IMG/VR virus record: IMGVR_UViG_3300032315_000486
From: a virus
Lineage: Duplodnaviria > Heunggongvirae > Uroviricota > Caudoviricetes
Direction: 5' to 3' (one strand)
DNA length: 64,000 bases
Part shown: positions 3,322 through 63,660 of the stretch, in pieces
Numbering within the stretch: the stretch's first letter is position 1
How the letters are laid out: each line of letters opens with the position of its first letter
The notes under the pieces: generated by a model
What the model saw: only the letters and a program-made list of their open reading frames with translations
The model's database searches: none
What the model was told of the DNA's origin: nothing
Made by a program: the position numbers and the translations under genes

Positions 3322-3642
3322 GTGTCAGAAACTCAACAAAACTACACAACTGAACAAACAAAGCAACTACTATCTCTCTATGAAGAGCTCGGAACAGACG
3401 GCATTGACGATATTGCAGAGCTTATGAAAAAGCCTGTAAGATCAATTAGATCTAAACTAGTTAAAGAGGGCGTATATGTACCCTCTCAAAAACAAGATAA
3501 CAAGAAAAATGGCCCTAGTAAGAAAGAACTTCTTAACACGCTAGAAAGCCTGGTAGGTTTTGACACTACTGGATTTAGTGGCTCAACCAAACAAGTATTG
3601 GCTGATTTAATTGTATATCTAGACAAAAATCACACTAAGTAA
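3322..3642 (+). CDS. small conserved protein, paralog family A (AT-rich copy)
   Basis: 106 aa, GTG start; shares NYT.E..QML.MYAELG.DGI..IAE.LGKPVRS.RSKLV.EGVYV...KKELLN.LESLVGFD with ORFs 60647-60973(-) and 63661->64000(-). Confidence 0.55.
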   Translation: MSETQQNYTTEQTKQLLSLYEELGTDGIDDIAELMKKPVRSIRSKLVKEGVYVPSQKQDNKKNGPSKKELLNTLESLVGFDTTGFSGSTKQVLADLIVYLDKNHTK

Positions 3643-3748: not shown

Positions 3749-3926
3749 AACAAATTCCCTATCAGAAGACGATAGTCTGGCGTCGGGGAGCCTGTTGTGA
3801 GTGGTACAGGTTAACAAAAAAACTCTCTGAGGGCTTGTGAATTTAACCTCAGCACACAACCAAATTTACCGATATAGAGCCGATCGTATATAAGTCCTAG
3901 TGTGCATTAGGCATGGCTTTGTTTAA

Positions 3927-4878: not shown

Positions 4879-5058
4879 AGTTTTTCATCCCGGAACTGCG
4901 GGTGATAGAATATAGTTTTTGAAGCACTATAACTATATTTGACTATGAATTAACATAGTATTGTAAGTGCTGCAACGGGTATGCTGTCCGTCGGCATACA
5001 CAGAGATAATACTGAGTGCTATGCAGAGGTATAGGGCGGACCAAATAAAAACAATACT

Positions 5059-14582: not shown

Positions 14583-14658
14583 GGTTCTATAGCACTACGG
14601 TAGTGCAGCCGTGCCCTAACACGGTCGGAAGCAGGTTCAATTCCTGTTAGGACCACCA
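14583..14658 (+). tRNA. tRNA with non-canonical anticodon arm (8-nt or 6-nt loop; candidate anticodon CCT or CTA)
   Basis: acceptor ggttcta/taggacc, D gcac-tacggta-gtgc, T-arm gcaggttcaattcctgt, CCA; anticodon region gccgtgccctaacacggt folds only as 5-bp stem + 8-nt loop or 6-bp stem + 6-nt loop. Confidence 0.55.
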
Positions 14659-53952: not shown

Positions 53953-53970
53953 TGGGCCCTTTTTTATTTA
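53936..53970. terminator. bidirectional rho-independent terminator
   Basis: aaaaa-gggccc-gtaat-gggccc-ttttttattt between convergent gene sets. Confidence 0.8.
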
Positions 53971-54974
53971 GCTGGTATGAGTATGCGAGAGAACTGTTCA
54001 TAACACGATTTCCATGTCCAACGCGTAGAACTATCATAAGCATCCTGCCTGCTCAGTTTCATTGCTTCAACCACAGCTTCATGTAGATCATCACTTAAGT
54101 ACCCATTAACTCCTTGAGTTAATATGTCTATAGGCCCAGTAACAGGATATGCAGCTACAGGAGTTCCACAAGCCAGCGCCTCAATGTTTACAACTCCAAA
54201 TGTATCAGATCGAGAAGGAAATACGAACACTGATGCTCGTCTATACCAGTCACCAAGCTCGTGCCCTGTTCGCTTTCCAGCAAAAAGAACATCTGGATAC
54301 CGAGCCTTCAAAGCCTCCAGATATGGTCCATCACCTACTAGCACCTTTTGAGTGCCTGGAATGTCAAGACTGCAAAAGTCGTCCAGACCTTTTTCATGGC
54401 TCACACGGCTCACGCACAACACAATCTTAGTAGACCCAGCCTCTCCCGTGTATGGATAGAACGTGGCAGTATCAACTCCGCGTGTCCATGAGTGAACTGG
54501 CTGAGTGAATCCGTGACCGCGCAGCTCTCGAACCATTGATTCAGTTGTGGTTAAAACCGCAGTAGCATCACGATAAGCCCAACGCATCAGCCGCCAACCC
54601 CGCTCAACACTGATCCAAGGCCAACGAGCATTGACAAACTCAGGAAATTTGGTATGGCATGATGCTGAGAACGGGATGCGCAGTCTGCGACAAGTTCTAG
54701 CAAATGCAATTCCAAGTGGGCCTTCTAGAGTTGCAATGTGAATGTGATCCCAGCGTTGACGCTTGAGCAGTCTACGAATGTGCAGAGGATTTGGGATTCC
54801 TACCGTAACCTCAGGATACTGAGGAAGCGAGAACCGGACAGTACAGCGTCCAGGATGATAAACGTGTACCACATCTCCATGGTTTCTAGCTTCACGAACG
54901 AGGTTCGTTAGGGTTGTGACCACTCCATTAGTTTGCGGATGCCAAGCATCAGTTATCAGAAGTATTCGTGCCAT
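53964..54974 (-). CDS. glycosyltransferase family 4 (GT-B fold)
   Basis: MARILLITDAWHPQTNGV N-terminus; EX7E motif region FVFPSRSDTFGVVNIEALACGTPVAAYPV. Confidence 0.7.
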   Translation of the reverse strand: MARILLITDAWHPQTNGVVTTLTNLVREARNHGDVVHVYHPGRCTVRFSLPQYPEVTVGIPNPLHIRRLLKRQRWDHIHIATLEGPLGIAFARTCRRLRIPFSASCHTKFPEFVNARWPWISVERGWRLMRWAYRDATAVLTTTESMVRELRGHGFTQPVHSWTRGVDTATFYPYTGEAGSTKIVLCVSRVSHEKGLDDFCSLDIPGTQKVLVGDGPYLEALKARYPDVLFAGKRTGHELGDWYRRASVFVFPSRSDTFGVVNIEALACGTPVAAYPVTGPIDILTQGVNGYLSDDLHEAVVEAMKLSRQDAYDSSTRWTWKSCYEQFSRILIPAK

Positions 54975-55707
54975 CTAACCTAAACTCTATGATTTCAAAC
55001 CGACCGTCTGAGTGTTCTACAAGGGCAGTTGCGCTTTCAACCCAATCACCGCAATTCATGTATGCAACCCCATCAATCTGCTTGATCACAGCTGTGTGAA
55101 TGTGTCCGCAGATGATCCCGTCATAGCCTTCACGTTTGCAATATGCAGAAACGTGAGTTTCAAAGTGTGTGATGAATGATACAGCTTGTTTTGTAGTCTG
55201 TTTGAGCCAGTTGCTCAAACTCCAGTATTCTAGACCAAACCAACCTCTCACTCGGTTAAATTGAATGTTCGCGACGATGGCCGCGTTGTATGCCACATCA
55301 CCGATGTGCATCAGCCAACGTTTGTCAACCATCAGCGAGTCAAAGAAGTCTCCATGAATCACCAGCAGCCGCTGTCCGCTCACAGAGTGATAGTCACAAC
55401 GATCTACCAGACGGATGTTGCCAACTTCAATGTCGAATTGAGTGAACTTGCGAAACACCTCATCGTGGTTTCCGGTCGTGTATGTGACCTCAGTTCCTCT
55501 TTTCGCTGCGGTAAGGATACGACGTATCACATTCGCATGGCTTTGAGGAAACCACCACCGACGGCTAAGTTGCCAGCCGTCGACAATGTCTCCAACCAGA
55601 AACAGTCGATCGCATGTGTGCTGCTTTAGAAACGCACACAGCGCGTCTGCTTGACAACCGCGAGCTCCTAGGTGAATGTCCGATATGAAAATGCTGGTGT
55701 AATGCAT
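54949..55707 (-). CDS. LpxH-like calcineurin-type metallophosphoesterase
   Basis: FISDIHLG, LVGDIVDGW, TGNHDE; overall layout as UDP-2,3-diacylglucosamine hydrolase family. Confidence 0.65.
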   Translation of the reverse strand: MHYTSIFISDIHLGARGCQADALCAFLKQHTCDRLFLVGDIVDGWQLSRRWWFPQSHANVIRRILTAAKRGTEVTYTTGNHDEVFRKFTQFDIEVGNIRLVDRCDYHSVSGQRLLVIHGDFFDSLMVDKRWLMHIGDVAYNAAIVANIQFNRVRGWFGLEYWSLSNWLKQTTKQAVSFITHFETHVSAYCKREGYDGIICGHIHTAVIKQIDGVAYMNCGDWVESATALVEHSDGRFEIIEFRLDGTNTSDN

Positions 55708-56510
55708 TATGCGCTAAACACGACCCCAACATAATTTGCAGAGGCCTGGGAGGCTCCACCCCAGAAATATGTGGTGACCGGTTCACTAGCTTGGAACGCT
55801 GAGATACCATATCCACCAGTGGTAAGAGCAGGTCCTGGAGTGTCGCCGTCAAGACGAGCTCCCGGCTGGATTCCCCAAACTCCGTCATCACGAGAGAAGA
55901 ATGAGGTTGTATGATAACCGTTGGCAGTAGGATCTTGAGCCGATGAAAACTGAAATCCACTAGTTTCATTGCTGCCATCTAGGATGATGTCTCCAGTGTT
56001 AGATATGATGATCGGACGATATTGACGGAACAGTCCATCACCAGTTTGAGGTGAGAACATGGTGGCTGGTGTGGTAACAGGTCGAGCAGAAGGAACGACA
56101 GTTCCCCCAGAGTCTATCGTAGCGCCTGTCCAAGCCCAAACTAGGATCCCACGGAATTGAGTTCCATCCCAGAATGCCATAGCGCTCCAAGGTAATCCGC
56201 TAGCAGCAGCCGTCCCAGTTAGAGTTCCCAGATCACGAACCCCGAGAGGACCGCTAGCACGGTAACGGAAGTTACCTGCGCCAGGAATGGTCTGAACTCC
56301 TGTCATTGACTCACTCATGAGTGTGGGGACGGGAACTGCCCACGCTGAATATCCACGTAGCTCTACAGCTGTGACAGCCGCAGCCACGGCAGTGGCGTTG
56401 GCAGTGACCGAGGAGAGCGTTCTAGCCAGCGAACGTAGTTCGCCCAAAACTGTCCCACCTCCTCCAGGCACCCAAGAGTTAACTCCGAAGGTGTCGAAAG
56501 GTGATATCAT
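55707..56510 (-). CDS. Gly/Thr/Ala-rich protein (possible fibre/surface protein)
   Basis: 267 aa, low complexity. Confidence 0.45.
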   Translation of the reverse strand: MISPFDTFGVNSWVPGGGGTVLGELRSLARTLSSVTANATAVAAAVTAVELRGYSAWAVPVPTLMSESMTGVQTIPGAGNFRYRASGPLGVRDLGTLTGTAAASGLPWSAMAFWDGTQFRGILVWAWTGATIDSGGTVVPSARPVTTPATMFSPQTGDGLFRQYRPIIISNTGDIILDGSNETSGFQFSSAQDPTANGYHTTSFFSRDDGVWGIQPGARLDGDTPGPALTTGGYGISAFQASEPVTTYFWGGASQASANYVGVVFSA

Positions 56511-56749
56511 CCTAGAGTAACCTCACTTGGGAAGCTGGAACGAACCCAAACCACATTTCCACTAGCAGTTGGGAATATGTCAGTTAAAGCTCCGCGGTCT
56601 CCTTGGTTAGCCTCATAGACAAATCCGGCCGCAGGTGATACGTTAGTTCCTAGTCCTACGAAAACTGCACCCGATCCAGTGATCTGAAAAGCTACAGTTG
56701 AGTTGGCTGAGGCTACACGCCAGTCAGCATTTGTTGTAATTGTATACAT
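56507..56749 (-). CDS. small Gly/Ala/Val-rich beta-type protein
   Basis: 80 aa, aaaggagaaaatcgaATG RBS; first gene of minus operon. Confidence 0.45.
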   Translation of the reverse strand: MYTITTNADWRVASANSTVAFQITGSGAVFVGLGTNVSPAAGFVYEANQGDRGALTDIFPTASGNVVWVRSSFPSEVTLG

Positions 56750-56769
56750 TCGATTTTCTCCTTTGATTT

Positions 56770-56798
56770 AGAATACCACGGTCACCAGCTGAGGTCAA
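56770..56798 (-). promoter_or_regulatory. sigma70-like promoter of minus operon (TTGACC-N17-TATTCT)
   Basis: reverse complement of ggtcaa(56793-98)/agaata(56770-75). Confidence 0.5.
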
Positions 56799-56820
56799 GC
56801 ATAATCGTCTAAAAAGTGCA

Positions 56821-56833
56821 GCAACGGAGTTGC
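56821..56833. promoter_or_regulatory. operator-like palindrome GCAAC-gga-GTTGC (site O1)
   Basis: just upstream of the -35 of the minus-operon promoter; same family as O2-O5. Confidence 0.4.
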
Positions 56834-57247
56834 GCTGGGGGCAGGGCATTAAAGAATATTTTTAAAATGGTCGTCAACCATTGTTTTTGACAACTTTGCT
56901 ACTAGACTTTTTATTCATTTAGGTGTACGATTGAGAGGTAGACAAAAGAGCAGGGAGAACGAGATAGGCAATGGAATTGCCGTGCGTACTAAGATCACGC
57001 AGTGAAACGGCGGGGCCAGCAGCAGGCTACGAGCGTTAGCGAGCGCTGCTGACAGCATCACGAAGTGAATTAGTGGTGATCGAAGCGGATATTTGAGTCG
57101 TACTTACGTTTAAATCACTGTGTTAGATTGTTTAAACGTATTTTAACCTGTTTACGTCGTATTCTAGTTTATAGTATTATTATTCAGGCACATTCAGGCC
57201 TGCCAAGAATTGGCACAGGCGGCAAGTGATACTATCCCAGCCTGCGT

Positions 57248-57262
57248 TGCAACGTAGTTGCA
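57248..57262. promoter_or_regulatory. operator-like palindrome TGCAAC-gta-GTTGCA (O2)
   Basis: perfect 6-bp inverted repeat. Confidence 0.45.
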
Positions 57263-57306
57263 TTGGGTTGTACTGGCCTGCCATGAAATGGCTCGGGGTT
57301 GATTCC

Positions 57307-57332
57307 GTTGCATTGGTTGCAACGAAGTTGCA
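57307..57332. promoter_or_regulatory. overlapping palindromes CGTTGCA-ttggt-TGCAACG and TGCAAC-gaa-GTTGCA (O3)
   Basis: two dyads sharing the TGCAAC arm. Confidence 0.45.
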
Positions 57333-57368
57333 CTGGTGGTCCATGAAATGGCTCGGGGCCCTTACATC

Positions 57369-57385
57369 GTGCAAAGTATTTGCAC
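57369..57385. promoter_or_regulatory. operator-like palindrome GTGCAAA-gta-TTTGCAC (O4)
   Basis: perfect 7-bp inverted repeat. Confidence 0.45.
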
Positions 57386-57694
57386 TGGTGGGCCATGAAA
57401 TGGCTCGGGGTTTTTAGGTTTTCCTACTAGGATTCCGTCTATTTTTTAGACTCTCTTCGGATCCAGGACTCTGTCTAGTGATTATTTTTCAAATAAGAGA
57501 GATTTTAGTCTAGTAACGTATACTATCGGTAGCCGACCGCGCCAGAAATTCATAAAAACAGGTTGGTACCAGTGGTCTTGCCAAATAATCATTTAAAAAG
57601 TAGGATTCCTCAAAAATATTTCAAAAAACAACCGTTAATTGCTTGACCCCTGCCCGTCAGACCCGTGAAACTACGTTTCATACCGAATATGGCG

Positions 57695-57709
57695 TTGCAC
57701 GAAGTGCAA
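57695..57709. promoter_or_regulatory. operator-like palindrome TTGCAC-gaa-GTGCAA (O5)
   Basis: perfect 6-bp inverted repeat adjacent to terminator. Confidence 0.45.
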
Positions 57710-57745
57710 AAGGCCCCTAGGAGTGATCCTAGGGGCCTTTTTAGT
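57707..57745. terminator. bidirectional rho-independent terminator
   Basis: aaaa-ggcccctagga-gtga-tcctaggggcc-ttttt, 11-bp perfect stem. Confidence 0.75.
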
Positions 57746-57826
57746 ATGATTCGGTAGCCTGTGGCGTACCCAGGACCTTGTTTCAATCATTCACTAGTCA
57801 AAATCCTACCACACGCATCAAAATTC

Positions 57827-58158
57827 TACTTGCCGTTTGCCTACTGGTGCTTCGCACCCACCCACATCACGAAGTGATGCACCGTTGCAGGACTTTGAAA
57901 CGTAGTTTCGAATCGCACGAACCCCGCCACGCGCTTTGATTTTGTACTTGCCATTTGCCTACTGGTGCACGCACACACTTGCAATTAAACAGCAGCTGGA
58001 CCGAATCCCGCGTTTAAAATTTACTTTGTACTTGCCAAATGCCTACTGGCGCAGGGCCGCGCACACAGACTGACCGTCAACACGGACCTAATCGAAATTG
58101 CACTCGACGGCCGCATGGTCGAAAGTCTACTTTCTACTTGGCGCAAGCTGCGCTTGCC
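57827..58158 (+). repeat. iteron-like direct repeats TACTTGCCnTTTGCCTACTGGyGC (3 good copies + 1 degenerate)
   Basis: copies at 57827-57850, 57945-57968, 58029-58052, degenerate 58134-58158; spacing 118/84/105 bp. Confidence 0.55.
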
Positions 58159-58212
58159 AGCTATGCCTGCGGTTGCGGCGAAATCGCGTGGTGGTTGTGG
58201 TGGAAAAGATGA

Positions 58213-58270
58213 ATGAAATCAATTGCTTGGGAGGCCGGGCGCCCCGACTGTTAACCTGTTGAAATCCAAT
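58213..58270. repeat. cassette-boundary dyad element R1 (degenerate)
   Basis: aatcaattgcttgg...ggccgggcgccccg...ctgttaacctgttgaaatcc. Confidence 0.4.
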
Positions 58271-58509
58271 GGTTATTTTTCATTTGCATCAGTGCTGAGA
58301 ATCATGTATAACGTATGAGTAGGCAGTAAAGAGAAGCCTAGCCGATGCCGCGATAGACTGCACCGCTTACACTGTTCATGACAGGCGGCTTGCACGGATG
58401 ATACGGGTTGGTCAGATGAAGCGGGGTAGAGATGCGCATCCCCTGCCAATCGAATAGGCTTCTCCTTAGTGCCTACCAATAAACTCTTTGATTTCAGTAA
58501 CTTGGAATC

Positions 58510-58555
58510 AGAGGCGCCCCGCCCTGTATGTCCTTGAACATACAGGGTTTTTTAG
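58510..58555 (+). terminator. rho-independent terminator oriented for plus-strand transcription (R0)
   Basis: ggcgccccg then ccctgtatgt-ccttga-acatacaggg hairpin + tttttt. Confidence 0.7.
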
Positions 58556-58773
58556 TGCGCCTCGAATTGTGGGACTAAAGCCCATTCAACATTAGACAGC
58601 TCAGTCAACTCGCCATCTTCAATGCCGAGCATTTTCCAATTGCTGTAAGCGTCCCAGTCCTTTTTATCAATGGCCCCGCCTTCCCAGAGTTTACGGAATT
58701 CAGCATTGATTTGCGGAAGTGTGCCTTGTATAAAACAAGGCACTTCATCCTCCGTATAGATCAGCACATACAT
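58552..58773 (-). CDS. hypothetical acidic protein (73 aa)
   Basis: last gene of a tricistronic minus unit. Confidence 0.45.
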   Translation of the reverse strand: MYVLIYTEDEVPCFIQGTLPQINAEFRKLWEGGAIDKKDWDAYSNWKMLGIEDGELTELSNVEWALVPQFEAH

Positions 58774-58784
58774 TTTATTTCCTT

Positions 58785-59015
58785 TCAGAAAACAGATTGA
58801 GGATGGCCGAACAACACAACCAGAAGGTCATAGCCGTCGAGCAGATCAGCCAGAGCGGCAACGCGGTCAACCTCGTCCCATTCAGCGTATTCGACTTCGC
58901 CAGCGAGTGACACCCAAGCGGCACTGGTCATGAGATTGGGATCAACATCGGTTTCAACTTCGGTGAGCATATAATGGTCACCGCCATCACGCCAGACTAC
59001 AGTGTAGTTTTTCAT
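58785..59015 (-). CDS. hypothetical acidic protein (76 aa)
   Basis: ORF. Confidence 0.45.
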   Translation of the reverse strand: MKNYTVVWRDGGDHYMLTEVETDVDPNLMTSAAWVSLAGEVEYAEWDEVDRVAALADLLDGYDLLVVLFGHPQSVF

Positions 59016-59026
59016 GTCTTTTCCTT

Positions 59027-59149
59027 TCAGAGGATTGTGAGTGATTCGACAGTGGATTCATCTTCTGCCAAATGGTAACCAAAGTCAAGCAGAATTTGCA
59101 TAGTCAAATGATTCAGGTAGTCGATGTATTCTTCGTAGGTCAGGTCCAT
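59027..59149 (-). CDS. hypothetical small protein (40 aa)
   Basis: ATG 8 nt after ggaaaaacaaa RBS-like and correctly spaced from promoter Pm1. Confidence 0.3.
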   Translation of the reverse strand: MDLTYEEYIDYLNHLTMQILLDFGYHLAEDESTVESLTIL

Positions 59150-59172
59150 TTTGTTTTTCCTTTCGATGATTA

Positions 59173-59201
59173 TGTATAGGCTGATTCGTTACGCGTTGCA
59201 A
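59173..59201 (-). promoter_or_regulatory. cassette promoter Pm1 (TTGCAA-N17-TATACA, CGAATC in spacer)
   Basis: minus strand ttgcaacgcgtaacgaatcagcctataca. Confidence 0.55.
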
Positions 59202-59221
59202 GCCCTAAATTACTGCGTAAT

Positions 59222-59270
59222 ATCAATGAGTTACGACCCGGGGCGCCGGGGTGGTTAACCCCTTGTTATT
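59222..59270. repeat. cassette-boundary dyad element R2
   Basis: caatgagttacgacccggggcgccggggtggttaaccccttgttatt. Confidence 0.6.
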
Positions 59271-59466
59271 ATTCAGTTTCTTCCTCTGGGATGTCTTCAA
59301 CCTCGATTAGTTTCGCATCTAAATTATGCGAATCAAAGGTTTGCTCTTCCGAATCTTCCCAATCACCATTGCGGACCATAGCCCTAGCCTCTTCTTCTGA
59401 TTCGGCTTCAAGCCAGACTGTTTGCCGCCCGCTGAACGGCATTGAAAAGGTGTAAAGTTTGCTCAT
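59269..59466 (-). CDS. hypothetical acidic protein (65 aa)
   Basis: start MSKLYTF after gggagatcaaagc RBS; track ORF opens at 59505. Confidence 0.45.
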   Translation of the reverse strand: MSKLYTFSMPFSGRQTVWLEAESEEEARAMVRNGDWEDSEEQTFDSHNLDAKLIEVEDIPEEETE

Positions 59467-59546
59467 GCTTTGATCTCCCTGATCAGTTGTTTCAGGCGCG
59501 CCCAACGGCTACGCTTGGGCTTGCTCAGTCGAACTTTAATCCTCAT
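59463..59546 (-). CDS. 27-aa basic peptide (MRIKVRLSKPKRSRWARLKQLIREIKA), translationally coupled on both sides
   Basis: TAAAATG overlap with upstream stop and ATGA overlap with downstream start. Confidence 0.25.
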   Translation of the reverse strand: MRIKVRLSKPKRSRWARLKQLIREIKA

Positions 59547-59547
59547 T

Positions 59548-59775
59548 TTAGCAGCTCCCGATTTCAAGAATGTCAGAGTTAAATTGCGGTTGCAGAGTAT
59601 TTACCACATCTTCCCAAGTGGTAAATGATCCTCCAGCAGGATCACCATCACACCAAACACTATCATCAGATTCATCATCGCAGACAACGCTGAAATTAGA
59701 ATCCTCTTCCAAAGTGCCATAGCACTCCACGTCCCGACCTTGGTAGTGGACGATGTATACATGATTTGCTTCCAT
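59548..59775 (-). CDS. hypothetical Cys/Asp-rich protein (75 aa)
   Basis: aaaaggagaaacaaagATG RBS. Confidence 0.5.
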   Translation of the reverse strand: MEANHVYIVHYQGRDVECYGTLEEDSNFSVVCDDESDDSVWCDGDPAGGSFTTWEDVVNTLQPQFNSDILEIGSC

Positions 59776-59799
59776 CTTTGTTTCTCCTTTTGATGATTA

Positions 59800-59829
59800 A
59801 CTATAGCCCGAATCATGAGGACAGTGCAA
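59800..59829 (-). promoter_or_regulatory. cassette promoter Pm2 (TTGCAC-N18-TATAGT, GATTCG in spacer)
   Basis: minus strand ttgcactgtcctcatgattcgggctatagt. Confidence 0.5.
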
Positions 59830-59848
59830 GCACAAAGTTTCTGTGTGT

Positions 59849-59900
59849 TCTCAACGGGTTATGCTGCGGGGCGCCGGGGTGGTTAACCCCTTGTTATTAT
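59849..59900. repeat. cassette-boundary dyad element R3
   Basis: caacgggttatgctgcggggcgccggggtggttaaccccttgttatt. Confidence 0.55.
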
Positions 59901-60319
59901 AATTCTTCAACAGGTAGATATTCCCATTTAAAAGACCTAGAACCAGAAATTTCTAGCAGAGGAGATTCTGTCTTTTTATTGTATTTCAGAAAAGACTTGA
60001 CCTCCTTGAGCACGTGTTTGGCTTGTAGGAAAGTAATTGCAAAAACCTCAGTTTGCCCGCTATTCATTTTAAACCCTTGGCCGGTCTTAGGGTCTTGAAA
60101 GTTACCTGATACAACCACCTCGTATGCTTTGCCGCCTTTCTTTTCTGCAAGCATATGTGCAAGCACTTCAGCATCGGAATCTTCAATCTCAATGCTAGCC
60201 ATGCGAATGCGATCAGACTTTAGAAACCCGATTTGTTTTGCTCGGGACGTAACACTTCCGCGAGTTACACCGATTTTGGTAATTCCAAAACCTTCGTAAG
60301 TGACAGCATAGAGTTTCAT
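59897..60319 (-). CDS. GIY-YIG/T5orf172-like domain protein candidate (140 aa)
   Basis: start MKLYAVTYEGFGITKIGVT (..LY....G..KIGvT); promoter-consistent ATG at 60319 rather than 60373. Confidence 0.4.
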   Translation of the reverse strand: MKLYAVTYEGFGITKIGVTRGSVTSRAKQIGFLKSDRIRMASIEIEDSDAEVLAHMLAEKKGGKAYEVVVSGNFQDPKTGQGFKMNSGQTEVFAITFLQAKHVLKEVKSFLKYNKKTESPLLEISGSRSFKWEYLPVEEL

Positions 60320-60344
60320 GGTTGCTTCCTTTTCTGTTACCTTG

Positions 60345-60373
60345 TTTATAGCTGCTAAACTATAAGTCGTCAA
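60345..60373 (-). promoter_or_regulatory. cassette promoter Pm3 (TTGACG-N17-TATAAA)
   Basis: minus strand ttgacgacttatagtttagcagctataaa. Confidence 0.5.
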
Positions 60374-60393
60374 TATCGTTTAAAGACGATAGA

Positions 60394-60446
60394 AATCAAT
60401 GAGTTAGCTGCCCGGCCGCCCCACCCGCTAACCTGTTGAAATCATT
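60394..60446. repeat. cassette-boundary dyad element R4
   Basis: aatcaatgagttagctgcccggccgccccacccgctaacctgttgaaatcatt. Confidence 0.6.
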
Positions 60447-60471
60447 ACACATTTTCCGTGTCTTTCGTGCA

Positions 60472-60504
60472 ACAAAAAAGCCCCCGCATTGCTGCGAGGG
60501 CTTT
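60472..60504 (-). terminator. rho-independent terminator (minus orientation)
   Basis: minus strand gccctcgcagcaatgcgggggc + ttttttgtt. Confidence 0.55.
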
Positions 60505-60646
60505 AAGCGTGCATACTGTCTAGCACGATCAACCGGCGGGTGACGCAACCGACACGGATTTGTTTTGACCATTTAACGTCGGGTCTGGAGTCTTATCTGA
60601 ACCGAGACGATAGTTGGGTGTGACATTTCTGCCACACCCGTTAGGC

Positions 60647-60973
60647 TCAGGCGGCTTTCACCGCCTGCGCCAGAGCGATCACAGAGGCGATTGCCTCTTT
60701 AGTCGCACCCAGCAAACCGTCAACGGGAAAATCGACCAGCGACTCCAGTTCGTTGAGCAGTTCCTTTTTGGTCGGGCCTTCGACCTTGGCAGCCTTCGGA
60801 GCCTTCGGCTCGGCCACATAGGCACCCTCGCGGACCAGCTTGGACCGGACGGACCGGACAGGCTTGCCCAAGGTTTCGGCAATCTTTTCGATGCCGTCAT
60901 TGCCCAACTCGGCATACATCTGCAACATTTGCTCGACCATCGACTCGGTGTAGTTCACTTTTGCTTCAGCCAT
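60647..60973 (-). CDS. small conserved protein, paralog family A (GC-rich copy 1)
   Basis: MAEAKVNYTESMVEQMLQMYAELGNDGIEKIAETLGKPVRSVRSKLVREGAYV...KKELLNELESLVDF; start chosen from ggagaaaatcATG. Confidence 0.55.
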   Translation of the reverse strand: MAEAKVNYTESMVEQMLQMYAELGNDGIEKIAETLGKPVRSVRSKLVREGAYVAEPKAPKAAKVEGPTKKELLNELESLVDFPVDGLLGATKEAIASVIALAQAVKAA

Positions 60974-61004
60974 GATTTTCTCCTCAGATGGGCTGTTTCG
61001 CTTT

Positions 61005-61033
61005 CCGTTCAATATATATAGACGATTCGCGGG
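61005..61033 (-). promoter_or_regulatory. cassette promoter Pm4 (TTGCTG-N17-TATATA, CGAATC in spacer)
   Basis: minus strand ttgctgcctgcccgcgaatcgtctatata. Confidence 0.5.
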
Positions 61034-61103
61034 CAGGCAGCAAGAGTAATTTTTCGCTTGACACGCACAAAATGGGGTCTTGAAGTGACTAAATTATGCA
61101 ATG

Positions 61104-61162
61104 AAATCAATGGGTTAGCCGCCGGGGCGCCGCCCCAGCTATCTCATTGAAATAGCTGGGTT
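61104..61162. repeat. cassette-boundary dyad element R5
   Basis: aatcaatgggttagccgccggggcgccgccccagctatctcattgaaatagctgggtttttt. Confidence 0.6.
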
Positions 61163-61167
61163 TTTTG

Positions 61168-61371
61168 TTACAGTTCGTCAACGAGAGTTTCGTCGTCACC
61201 CTCCCAAGCGGCGTTCATCAGACACGAGTCTGCGCCTTCTTCTGGAGTCATGCCGCACTCATAGGAGTCACGGCTAAGCCAGTCGGGCAGCATCATACTG
61301 TCAAGCCCGCCAGTCCGCTTGACGAGAATGCGATCAACCTGCGTCATCCATTCTTCATAGGTTATAGTCAT
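61168..61371 (-). CDS. hypothetical acidic protein (67 aa)
   Basis: ggagg RBS; ATGA overlap with upstream gene. Confidence 0.45.
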   Translation of the reverse strand: MTITYEEWMTQVDRILVKRTGGLDSMMLPDWLSRDSYECGMTPEEGADSCLMNAAWEGDDETLVDEL

Positions 61372-61559
61372 TCAAAGTGTCCTCCAAATCGAGTGTGGCC
61401 GATAGCTACAGGAATTTCGTGCGTGGGATATCCATCAGCTTTGAGTTGTGAAGCCAGGGTTTCATCAGAACGAGTCAAGCCTTTCGGCCATGTTTTGGGA
61501 AATCCATACCGCCAGCCGCTTGGCGGGTCATACCAGTCAGGGACGAAAACTTTAGTCAT
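61368..61559 (-). CDS. hypothetical protein (63 aa)
   Basis: start MTKVFVPDWYD after caggaggttgct RBS; track ORF opens at 61634. Confidence 0.45.
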   Translation of the reverse strand: MTKVFVPDWYDPPSGWRYGFPKTWPKGLTRSDETLASQLKADGYPTHEIPVAIGHTRFGGHFE

Positions 61560-61580
61560 AGCAACCTCCTGTGATGATCG

Positions 61581-61609
61581 TATATAACGTGATTCGTTAG
61601 TGCGGACAA
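61581..61609 (-). promoter_or_regulatory. cassette promoter Pm5 (TTGTCC-N17-TATATA, CGAATC in spacer)
   Basis: minus strand ttgtccgcactaacgaatcacgttatata. Confidence 0.5.
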
Positions 61610-61628
61610 TAGGCAAATTTGTGTGCGT

Positions 61629-61680
61629 TATCAATGAGTTAGAATCGGCAGCGCCCCGCCCGCTAAGTGCTTGATTTAGT
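61629..61680. repeat. cassette-boundary dyad element R6
   Basis: atcaatgagttagaatcggcagcgccccgcccgctaagtgcttgatttag. Confidence 0.55.
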
Positions 61681-61710
61681 TGAGAAAAATGAGGGGCCGA
61701 AGCCCCTCAC

Positions 61711-62433
61711 TTAGGCGTTGACAACCTGCGGCAACTGTGCCTTGCCGTCGATGCCGAGTCGGGTGTTGATTTTCTTCCACACCGCGCCAGCCAGTTCGGC
61801 AGGGGACTTGACAACAGGCATTCGTTTCTTGCGCGACAGCGTCCGCACCAGCAAATCCGATTCGATTTCCACGTCGGACCAAGCGATATGCCGCTCTACA
61901 AATTCCGCTTGACAAAATTCGTATTTGTAAGCGGACTCGGCAGAGGTCGAAACGAATCGGCCAGACGCGCTGGCAGCGGCGACCGTGCCATAATGACGCG
62001 GCACCGATTCGCCCCAGAAATCCCAAATGTCCATCAGTTCCACGCGCTTGTCAAGCCACCGCGTAACCGTGCCGCCCGTCAAGACAGAGACGGTTTCAGG
62101 CAAGTATTTGAAATCAAAGGCAGAATTGTAGGCCGCGCAGATCACTCGATGGCCTGCCACCTGAAATTCGCCAATTTGGCGGTTATACTCCGCGCGAACG
62201 TCCAGCACATCCGCAGGCTGAATCAGCTTGCCATATGCGTCGTCAAAGTAGTGGCCCAGCTTTTCAGCGAAGAAAGGCACATCATGGCGGAACGCCTCGC
62301 GAATCACATACGACCCGCGACCATATTCGCGGCCACGCTTGTCAATGGTTTTCCATGCCACATCAAACGCGATGCGTTTTTTCATGGTGGTTTCAATGTC
62401 AGTCACGACGAACAGGGTGGGCTTATGGGTCAT
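61711..62433 (-). CDS. DEDDh 3'-5' exonuclease (DnaQ-like fold)
   Basis: Exo I LFVVTDIETT (D.E), Exo II ICAAYNSAFDFKYL, Exo III HIAWSDVEIESDL (H....D); start at 62433 consistent with promoter/RBS. Confidence 0.6.
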   Translation of the reverse strand: MTHKPTLFVVTDIETTMKKRIAFDVAWKTIDKRGREYGRGSYVIREAFRHDVPFFAEKLGHYFDDAYGKLIQPADVLDVRAEYNRQIGEFQVAGHRVICAAYNSAFDFKYLPETVSVLTGGTVTRWLDKRVELMDIWDFWGESVPRHYGTVAAASASGRFVSTSAESAYKYEFCQAEFVERHIAWSDVEIESDLLVRTLSRKKRMPVVKSPAELAGAVWKKINTRLGIDGKAQLPQVVNA

Positions 62434-62470
62434 GGCAGGTTTCCTTCGTTGTCTGCGCTTCCTTATGATC

Positions 62471-62499
62471 TTTATACGGTGATTCGCAGGGGGATGCAA
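62471..62499 (-). promoter_or_regulatory. cassette promoter Pm6 (TTGCAT-N17-TATAAA, CGAATC in spacer)
   Basis: minus strand ttgcatccccctgcgaatcaccgtataaa. Confidence 0.5.
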
Positions 62500-62517
62500 C
62501 AACTAAAAAACGCAGCA

Positions 62518-62580
62518 AAATCAAGGGGTTAGCGGCGGGGGCGCCGGGGTGGTTAACCCCTTGTTATTCAATGATTTCTG
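62518..62580. repeat. cassette-boundary dyad element R7
   Basis: aatcaaggggttagcggcgggggcgccggggtggttaaccccttgttattcaatgatttc. Confidence 0.6.
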
Positions 62581-62749
62581 TCCACACCGAAATCTTCTGG
62601 CAAGCCTCATCATATAAGCTATTGTTCACGCCTTCGATATAGAGGTCGATAGCACCCGCCCCTTGGGCAATTACTTCCTCAGGAATTTCCTCGATCCATT
62701 CTGTATCAGTTCCGGCATATCCCATGCTATAACCCATTTTAATCTTCAT
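62564..62749 (-). CDS. hypothetical acidic protein (61 aa)
   Basis: last gene of tricistronic unit. Confidence 0.4.
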   Translation of the reverse strand: MKIKMGYSMGYAGTDTEWIEEIPEEVIAQGAGAIDLYIEGVNNSLYDEACQKISVWTEIIE

Positions 62750-63039
62750 TAGTATTCTCCACTCGGCAAGATGTTTTGATATACAGGACCATTTTCCGCG
62801 ATTTTAATATCCTCATACGGGCCGACGATAACGCGGTTCAGTTCCATTTTAGCGCATTCCAGAGCGCCAACCATTTCATTGACCACGGCGTATTTCAGCC
62901 CTTTAGTGCGGATATAATTGGCGATGAATGTGGAAACCACGAAGTTCAATTCACCCGCATTTTCAGGAATCCAATCAATTCCAACATCTTGCATATCAAG
63001 ATGAATATCTTCGCGCTGTTGTTCGGGGATATACGGCAT
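62749..63039 (-). CDS. hypothetical protein (96 aa)
   Basis: ORF coupled to upstream NDT-like gene. Confidence 0.45.
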   Translation of the reverse strand: MPYIPEQQREDIHLDMQDVGIDWIPENAGELNFVVSTFIANYIRTKGLKYAVVNEMVGALECAKMELNRVIVGPYEDIKIAENGPVYQNILPSGEY

Positions 63040-63040
63040 T

Positions 63041-63487
63041 TTAAGCGACCTTTCTCAGGGTTTCAACATTGCGACCACGGCGGCCAATTTCGGAGGCAAT
63101 GGCGTGATACGCGCCTTTCACCAGATTGTCAGTATCAAGCCAAGTCCAGAGGTGGTGATGCGTAAATGCCACATCCGAAATTGCATTCGGCTTGATAGAG
63201 CGGCAGCTACCGACAGCATACACCGGCTTGCCCATACCGTAGGCCATACCGATTTCAACCAGAGCGCCGCGCTGTTCTTCCGATTGATCCTCAGAGTAGA
63301 GCAGCACGAAGTCCGAGTCGCGCACATCTTCGTAGCACATTTGCCACAGTTGGTCTTTGTGATTGGTGACAATCGGATCATTCTGGTTCAAGTCGATCCA
63401 GCGAGCCTGAACAGGCAGACCCAGCGTGTCACGCAACATTTTGAATTTGTCAGCGTGCCAGATTTTGCCAGCGGTGTAGAATTTCAT
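63041..63487 (-). CDS. nucleoside 2-deoxyribosyltransferase-like (NDT/Rcl fold) protein, GC-rich copy
   Basis: MKFYTAGKIW....SDFVLLYSEDQSEEQRGALVEIGMAYGMGKPVYAV matches NDT-like pattern; aaaaggaacctgccATG RBS. Confidence 0.5.
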   Translation of the reverse strand: MKFYTAGKIWHADKFKMLRDTLGLPVQARWIDLNQNDPIVTNHKDQLWQMCYEDVRDSDFVLLYSEDQSEEQRGALVEIGMAYGMGKPVYAVGSCRSIKPNAISDVAFTHHHLWTWLDTDNLVKGAYHAIASEIGRRGRNVETLRKVA

Positions 63488-63519
63488 GGCAGGTTCCTTT
63501 TCTCTCTTGCCGATGATTA

Positions 63520-63548
63520 TGTATAGGCCGATTCGTTGGGCATTACAA
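63520..63548 (-). promoter_or_regulatory. cassette promoter Pm7 (TTGTAA-N17-TATACA, CGAATC in spacer)
   Basis: minus strand ttgtaatgcccaacgaatcggcctataca. Confidence 0.55.
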
Positions 63549-63565
63549 CAGAAAAGAATCGTTGT

Positions 63566-63620
63566 GAATCAATGGGTTAGCCGCGGGGGCGCCCCGCCCC
63601 GTAAGTTGTTGAAATCATTC
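63566..63620. repeat. cassette-boundary dyad element R8
   Basis: aatcaatgggttagccgcgggggcgccccgccccgtaagttgttgaaatcattc. Confidence 0.6.
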
Positions 63621-63660
63621 AGAAAAATGTGGGGGAACCTGTGCGGTTCCCCCTTGACGG

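Follow-up and report, generated by a model that had tools for sequence, protein, structure and literature searches.

Short extragenic repeats that are partly palindromic, combining GC-rich palindromes with a site for integration host factor (IHF), lie between transcription units in E. coli (RIP and BIME-1) and in Neisseria (Correia elements). In T4-like phages, the repeated intergenic PeSL motifs contain stem-loops that vary in size and whose activity as transcription terminators has been demonstrated (Arbiol et al. 2010, PMC2839356; Comeau et al. 2014, PMC4122927). In phage T5, the repeats described by Davison are inverted repeats containing DnaA boxes (bioRxiv 10.1101/866236). Here, we analysed a 64,000-nt stretch of DNA from a virus of the Caudoviricetes (IMG/VR record IMGVR_UViG_3300032315_000486), hereafter the window, in which a GC-rich element with dyad symmetry, called R, is repeated between short genes near one end. 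RIP, BIME-1 and Correia elements have one IHF site flanked by GC-rich palindromes or terminal inverted repeats, whereas R has a GC core flanked by two IHF-like sites; R is also absent from 596 Gb of bacterial genomes and is locked in distance to a promoter. We propose, giving this reading about an even chance of being right, that R is a class-specific architectural module upstream of the promoters of pre-early-like gene cassettes in an uncultured, distantly T5-like lineage, and that it is built from IHF-type arms and a separate centre.

Several features of PeSL recur at R: a repeated intergenic motif, GC-rich runs of G and of C, an AT-rich stretch, a sigma-70-like early promoter, small flanking ORFans, and individual cassette insertions and deletions that abut the motif. 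We found the sigma-70-like promoter with AT-rich DNA upstream, but not the adjacent stem-loop terminator. In its mode of action R would resemble both a PeSL and an upstream region that depends on IHF. Unlike PeSL, R is a rigid 44-bp unit with conserved TCAA-N4-TTAG arms and a central hexamer, and it shows no pairing covariation. R belongs to a T5-like rather than a T4-like lineage and is confined to a block resembling the T5 pre-early region. This block and the T5 region share A2 homologues (with Dmp-like genes in relatives) and a repeat-rich non-coding stretch of ~2 kb beside the array, but the T5 repeats are not promoter-linked 44-bp modules.

The window has a G+C content of 44% and comes from a large phage with 27 tRNA genes, an NAD-dependent ligase, a nicotinamide phosphoribosyltransferase and a Ro-like protein. 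Genes run on the plus strand to ~54 kb. After a minus-strand block (54-56.5 kb) and ~2 kb of non-coding DNA rich in repeats, short transcription units on the minus strand form an array that extends from 58.5 kb to the window end, and this is where the R elements sit. No close relative was found among 50,697 phage records, either by megablast of the region or by tblastn of an A2-like protein encoded in the array, and the ligase and the Ro-like protein have only distant matches (32-49% identity).

All eight copies (R1-R8) listed by the initial annotation were recovered as 44-bp cores, and we identified a ninth, degenerate copy at 58494-58537. They share the register TCAA-N4-TTAG-N7-GGCGCC-N7-CTAA-N4-TTGA. 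The unit had been put at ~55 bp; its actual length is exactly 44 bp, or ~76 bp counting the conserved A/T tracts. Scored against a skeleton of 20 positions (TCAA-N4-TTA-N8-GGCGCC-N8-TAA-N4-TTGA), the nine copies reach 17-20, and nothing in the other 57 kb exceeds 15/20. The string TCAAnGnGTTA occurs seven times in the window, every time in the R block. The core had been described as a perfect palindrome, which is correct for the central GGCGCC alone. The common variant core reported for R2, R3 and R7 is indeed present (GGGGTGGTTAACCCC at 59248, 59876 and 62546), in a variant block of 31 nt.

To place the window copies among relatives, we searched IMG/VR for exact matches to a 26-mer of the variant core and afterwards for the bare skeleton, which gave some 25 contigs and ~150 unique copies. 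With the loci retrieved by way of the most frequent cassette protein, the total came to 281 unique elements, all in uncultured viral contigs. The skeleton pattern was absent from the 596 Gb of bacterial and archaeal genomes searched, and the T5 terminal repeat has no R-like element (best skeleton score 14/20). When 75 unique elements were chosen by exact arms alone, 73 of them had a gap of 22 nt between TTA and TAA, i.e. the 44-bp unit. The centre of these 73 canonical elements is GGCGCC in 37, and nearly all the rest carry at most one mismatch. The two arms are held exactly 20 nt apart by a GC-only spacer, whose central hexamer (GGCGCC in this clade) is independently conserved. In a 168.9-kb NCBI contig (L038), an array of 17 R elements occupies 12 kb on the same strand, with one per transcription unit, and ceases at the strand switch.

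In the window, each R separates the stop codon of one unit from the -35 of the following one, as had been observed, with the genes on the minus strand and the R1 promoter alone on the plus strand. Read along the gene strand, the stop codon is followed by a separate canonical terminator (at R4, R6 and R8) and by the R element; then come ~20 nt rich in A and T, the promoter (-35, 17-nt spacer and -10) and finally the ribosome-binding site with the ATG. The -35 starts 20-22 nt from the element in R2, R3, R4, R6, R7 and R8, 20-21 nt in R1 and 63 nt in R5. Across the relatives, under a strict promoter definition, the offsets peak at 20-21 nt (62 cases), 30 nt (9), 41 nt (7) and 63 nt (4), against a background of 0-2. 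These steps of ~10.5 nt suggest helical phasing and point to dependence on the face of the helix.

The promoter next to R has the form TTGnnA, a 17-nt spacer and nATAnA, with a T/A tract between element and promoter. In 75 oriented copies the -10 reads (T/G/C)ATA(A/C)A and never has T as its last base; a TG frequently lies two bases before it. The candidate promoters of the plus-strand early and tRNA genes (4659, 17144, 21747, 25867 and 36775) have a -10 that ends in T and carry no R, and no R copy was found in the 57 kb occupied by these genes. This suggests that the window contains two promoter classes, of which R marks one. Two further motifs were seen at R-linked promoters. In many of them, the part of the spacer immediately before the -10 contains CGAATC (e.g. 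cgaatcagcc-TATACA), and a conserved (G/T)AATCATC follows the -10. The T5 promoter PN25 has AGATTCAT after its -10, which resembles the latter motif.

We then built a logo from copies oriented by their promoter and extended into the flanks. In it, TCAA is preceded by W and A, positions 9-10 are invariably TT, position 11 is a purine (R), and positions -15 to -10 form an A-tract that lies 10 nt from TCAA. A has a frequency of 0.59-0.73 in this tract, and a mirrored T-tract lies at +55 to +60. In the lambda H' 35-mer, the distance from A-tract to TCAA is also 10 nt. Canonical IHF elements are WATCAA, TTR four bp on, and a tract of 4-6 A in the other half (PMC1874591; bioRxiv 10.1101/382655). As read from the sequence, each R arm with its flank matches this full set: A-tract, 10 nt, WATCAA-N4-TTR. 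Each half of R thus resembles lambda attP H' and IHF-modulated promoters in having the A-tract, WATCAA, and TTR 4 bp on. Unlike canonical IHF sites, R has two sites placed head to head round a GC core and is repeated at nearly every promoter of one class, and its position 12 (G) and its centre are conserved beyond what IHF needs.

In the window we counted 13 exact copies of the IHF core WATCAANNNNTTR where 3.6 would be expected, and none of 100 shuffles reached 13. Nine of these matches lie within the 5.4-kb array (58217-63579), eight of them being promoter-proximal arms. Counted by element, 8/9 copies have an exact match in one arm, which is the promoter-proximal one in the seven minus-strand copies. 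Across relatives, exact matches were found in 49/75 proximal and 37/75 distal arms. The suggestion that R is a recognition site for a dimeric protein is the best supported of the earlier ideas as far as a protein site is concerned, but the anatomy points to two inverted IHF-type sites and a separate conserved centre, not to one dimer. A role for IHF in T5-like phages is plausible because Salmonella mutated in himA or himD is resistant to a T5-like phage (PMC8744999), an observation that bears on such phages rather than on R itself.

The following mechanism would be consistent with this anatomy. On DNA entry, host IHF or a protein of IHF-like specificity would bind the R arms and bend the DNA sharply, in fixed helical phase relative to RNA polymerase. 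The promoter-proximal site adjoins a sigma-70-type promoter with a weak -10, next to its -35 and the region of the UP element, and bending there would set the activity of all pre-early promoters alike and insulate them. The clade-specific centre would probably be read by a phage-encoded factor, which would allow the whole class to be switched jointly, e.g. for pre-early shut-off. In many copies the promoter-distal half appears to have been recruited in addition as a short hairpin, which with the A-tract would form an intrinsic terminator for transcription in the direction opposite to that of the cassettes. The predicted sites would make R an unusually clear natural case of dual, phase-locked IHF-type sites used as a standard promoter part.

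Several points weigh against this proposal. About a third of the copies have no recognisable promoter at a phased distance. T5 is without the element, so R is not required by T5-type biology in general. No DNABII gene was detected in the window or related loci by tblastn with E. coli IHF and HU and with SPO1 TF1. Bound to the proximal arm, IHF would occupy roughly -36 to -70 and overlap the zone of the UP element and the C-terminal domain of the RNA polymerase alpha subunit; it could therefore repress rather than activate. The conserved centre, G at position 12 and C at position 33 are not explained by IHF, and the variant distal arm of R2, R3 and R7 is off consensus (ACAA) and has no A-tract.

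An alternative is that the phage's own A2-like helix-turn-helix (HTH) proteins, produced from the first cassettes, bind every R element in place of IHF, at the arms, the centre or both, and either shut off or coordinate pre-early transcription or mark the DNA for second-step transfer. Two cassettes of the array encode such proteins (Table 1). The 108-aa protein is 36% identical to T5 A2 (E = 3e-7) and matches phrog_1725, a family of DNA-binding proteins, and relatives of the 108-aa and 107-aa proteins carry PF26822 (Phage_T5_A2). A2 is annotated as a DNA-binding protein in T5. The structural model contains a confident N-terminal three-helix HTH; a PDB sequence search and Foldseek returned generic three-helix HTH matches only (E >= 0.26). 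A2-like genes are the most widespread cassette genes in R loci, often with two or three paralogues within 10 kb, and their predicted recognition helix, RSVRSKLVREG, is invariant, as are the arms.

When loci were chosen by the A2-like protein alone, 34/74 carried a 44-bp element of the GGCGCC type, and some others, more distant contigs among them, had identical arms with different centres and lengths: GGCCCCGGCCC in 44 bp (contigs L095 and L097), CCCCGGGGG in 42 bp (L071 and L110), and a centre like GGGCCTGCCC in 42 bp (L049). Arms that stay constant across clades fit a conserved host factor, and clade-specific centres fit a co-evolving phage factor; neutral drift with homogenisation may be another source of the latter. 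In L071 and L049 the -35 lies ~30 nt from the element, not 20. A locus with a distant A2 homologue (L011) has two 36-bp variants with TCAA-N4-TTAG arms (3805-3840 and 4983-5018). Hairpins with 10-12-nt spacers, which the first pattern search had returned from unrelated contigs (L008-L018), were set aside as a different thing, with the exception of L011.

Several points tell against A2 as the arm-binding protein. The centres of TCAA and TTAG are separated by 8 bp and the arms by 32 bp, a spacing unlike that of a simple HTH dimer, and the A-tract at exactly 10 nt together with the W and R degeneracies are specific predictions of an IHF site. An invariant helix cannot account for centres that differ between clades. 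T5 itself has A2 and lacks R, and A2 paralogues also occur where there is no R, as in contig L098. In the window, a third A2-like paralogue (3322-3612, plus strand; 52% identity to the 108-aa protein) lies far from any R, so A2-type proteins are not confined to the cassette array. We regard A2 binding in place of IHF as unlikely. A combined arrangement seems similarly doubtful to us, in which R would be the long-sought cis site for T5-type pre-early proteins (A2, perhaps with A1). A three-part nucleoprotein complex, with host IHF on both arms and a clade-specific phage factor on the centre, would then form at every pre-early promoter; it would first boost these promoters, whose -10 is defective, and later shut off the class, or mark the first-injected DNA for second-step transfer.

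Whichever protein acts there, the gene context points to T5. With A2 homologues in the array and Dmp-like genes added in relatives, the R array corresponds to the first-step-transfer block of T5, here in a lineage that has no cultured members. Both Dmp-like (PF26880) and A2-like genes occur in the R array of L038; Dmp was not identified in the window, where a 148-aa cassette protein showed no detectable kinship to T5 Dmp. A rigid cis-element repeated at nearly every such promoter offers a testable handle on a decades-old question, namely how the first-injected genes of T5-like phages are coordinated and silenced, and what A2 targets.

R elements could also be homology patches like PeSL, at which cassettes are inserted, deleted or swapped by homologous recombination, the sequence being kept by concerted evolution. 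The parallel in architecture with PeSL (PMC2839356, PMC4122927) favours this, as do individual cassette junctions, which recall the PeSL-mediated shuffling of T4-like phages. The window and its closest relatives differ by whole cassettes. Relative to L026, the gene between R3 and R4 is replaced, with junctions at 59898 and 60360. L027 has two extra cassettes; one of the junctions falls within R8, the second 18 nt away from an R. Relative to L036 there are whole-cassette insertions and deletions with conserved order. These indels and replacements abut R and make the earlier idea of recombination hot spots plausible, but the ends of BLAST blocks (>=200 nt) are not enriched there: 9-16% fall at R against 6-21% expected, in what is a crude test. 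Homogenisation would also fix the neighbouring spacer positions, yet these vary freely within a genome, and the strict 44 bp, the phasing to the -35 and the same arms with different centres would be left unexplained. As the primary function of R, homology patches appear improbable. In the best-supported reading, R would serve secondarily as a recombination patch and as an antisense-facing terminator, the enrichment of breakpoints being unproven; the concept of regulatory cassettes with a second role as recombination modules would then extend from T4-like phages to a T5-like lineage.

The initial annotation had also proposed that R acts as a factor-independent terminator in both directions. To follow this up, we examined RNA folding, and most window copies folded no better than their shuffles: their z-scores are mostly 0 to -3, with -6.3 for the copy at 58494. 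In a whole-element helix of 19 pairs, 63.6% of cells pair versus 63.4 ± 0.8% after shuffling, and the covariation score is 0.150 versus 0.145. Permutation of arms within contigs gave z ~ -1 for the variable positions 5-8/37-40 and 12-19/26-33. The dyad symmetry arises from conserved columns and not from pairing, and R is not a selected hairpin. None of the nine window copies is followed by a U-run on the gene strand, and none qualifies as an intrinsic terminator on that (minus) strand. On the plus strand, only R5 and the 58494 copy qualify, along with R2, R3 and R7 in a weak form. Since covariation is absent, folding is ordinary and the gene strand lacks a U-run, the terminator reading fails for the element as such. 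Separate canonical terminators adjoin R4, R6 and R8, just upstream.

A distinct, local hairpin was found in the promoter-distal half. The 10-nt distal linker pairs perfectly with TTAG and the first spacer bases (9-10 bp, with compensatory changes) in 23/101 oriented copies, next to an A6/T6 tract, where ~5 would be expected by chance; this never occurs on the proximal side. A shorter stem (>=4 bp), formed between N4 and the spacer, is found in 31/98 distal halves versus 11 expected, again without enrichment on the proximal side. Together with the A-tract, these distal hairpins would form canonical intrinsic terminators solely for transcription against the cassette genes. The T-run noted earlier in R5 is present, but it belongs to such a local hairpin, facing the strand opposite to the genes.

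RNA-level termination or insulation as the function of R draws support from this enrichment and from the hairpin at 58521-58556, which plausibly ends a convergent plus-strand RNA from the R1 promoter; an antisense-facing terminator makes sense there because such an RNA would end at this place. R5 and the other distal hairpins may likewise shield the array from convergent transcripts that read through from the adjacent plus-strand region. However, the U-run lies antisense to the cassette genes, and most copies have no hairpin yet keep arms and centre. With the whole-element results and the separate terminators, this makes termination or insulation very unlikely as the main role. Promoter architecture is the more likely function, because R is fixed ~20 bp upstream of promoters and its arms are IHF-site-like.

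Three further candidates were rejected: a MITE/REP-type mobile repeat (no bacterial copies in 596 Gb, confinement to a single array, phase-locking to promoters, and flanks that are symmetric rather than direct repeats), an integron attC (box order reversed as GTTAGC...GCTAAC, no pairing covariation, a promoter for each unit, and no integrase among the open reading frames (ORFs) scanned), and DnaA boxes, which were ruled out on sequence.

Table 1. R elements, R-linked promoters, terminators and A2-like genes in the cassette array of the window
Feature	Position	Strand	Remarks
R1	58219..58262	+	19/20 skeleton; sole copy with plus-strand promoter; arm AATCAATTGCTTG is an exact WATCAANNNNTTR
R1 promoter TTGCAT-17-TATAAC, 21 nt from R1	58284..58312	+	Sequence reading; candidate non-coding RNA start
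Ninth R copy, end of minus-strand array	58494..58537	-	17/20; distal half forms hairpin 58521-58548, then T-run
R2, variant promoter-distal half ACAAGGGGTTAACCACCCC	59223..59266	-	Stop of upstream ORF (59269-59505) 3 nt away
R2 promoter TTGCAA-17-TATACA; -35 starts 21 nt from R2	59173..59201	-	
R3, variant distal half as in R2	59851..59894	-	
R3 promoter TTGCAC-18-TATAGT; -35 starts 21 nt from R3	59800..59829	-	
R4	60396..60439	-	19/20; proximal arm AATCAATGAGTTA is an exact IHF core consensus match
R4 promoter TTGACG-17-TATAAA; -35 starts 22 nt from R4	60345..60373	-	
Intrinsic terminator upstream of R4, ends A2-like gene	60477..60504	-	12-bp stem, then TTTGTTG
A2-like cassette gene, 108 aa, candidate trans-factor	60647..60973	-	T5 A2 homology
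R5	61107..61150	-	19/20; proximal arm is an exact IHF core consensus match
R5 promoter TTGCTG-17-TATATA; -35 starts 63 nt from R5	61015..61043	-	
R5 local hairpin CCCAGCTAT/ATAGCTGGG then T6, uses distal arm	61134..61166	+	Terminator-like antisense to genes only
R6	61631..61674	-	Both arms are exact IHF core consensus matches
R6 promoter TTGTCC-17-TATATA; -35 starts 21 nt from R6	61581..61609	-	
Intrinsic terminator upstream of R6: GAGGGGCTTCGGCCCCTC then ATTTTTCT	61684..61708	-	Sequence reading
R7, variant distal half	62521..62564	-	
R7 promoter TTGCAT-17-TATAAA; -35 starts 21 nt from R7	62471..62499	-	
R8	63569..63612	-	Perfect 20/20 skeleton
R8 promoter TTGTAA-17-TATACA; -35 starts 20 nt from R8	63520..63548	-	
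Intrinsic terminator upstream of R8	63631..63653	-	
Second A2-like paralogue, 107 aa	63661..63984	-	

Next to the array, a candidate structured non-coding RNA of ~240 nt was observed at 58284-58556 on the plus strand. It would start at the R1-linked promoter, end at the hairpin 58521-58548 and a T6 tract, and converge on the array. The sequence is kept in L026 and L001 and has no Rfam match; a scan of 54-64 kb with Rfam gave nothing relevant. Its consensus fold has an energy of -54.6 kcal/mol, and 8/52 pairs are compensatory, in a comparison of three sequences only.

The strand switch itself comprises ~1.7 kb of non-coding DNA (56510-58210), which is partly kept in L026 and resembles the repeat-rich injection-stop region of T5 through its position beside a pre-early-like block. 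It contains 3-4 direct repeats of ~41 nt (57197-57410; ...GGCCATGAAATGGCTCGGGG), three 49-nt repeats (57802-58052; TACTTGCCnTTTGCCTACTGGTGC) and a perfect 15-bp hairpin terminator (57708-57741). Three minus-strand genes (53964-56510) adjoin these repeats. One of them encodes a 252-aa metallophosphoesterase or SbcD-like protein (54949-55707), which may be a candidate counterpart of T5 A1.

Two observations concern tRNA-like sequences. In L027, an extra cassette at ~2430-2500 has a sequence like a tRNA T-arm and acceptor end (GGACTCGAACCGCA...), a possible tRNA gene fragment beside an R. In the window, ARAGORN reported a tRNA-like gene at 14583-14658 (plus strand), within the cluster of 27 tRNA genes, with an abnormal anticodon call of two bases.

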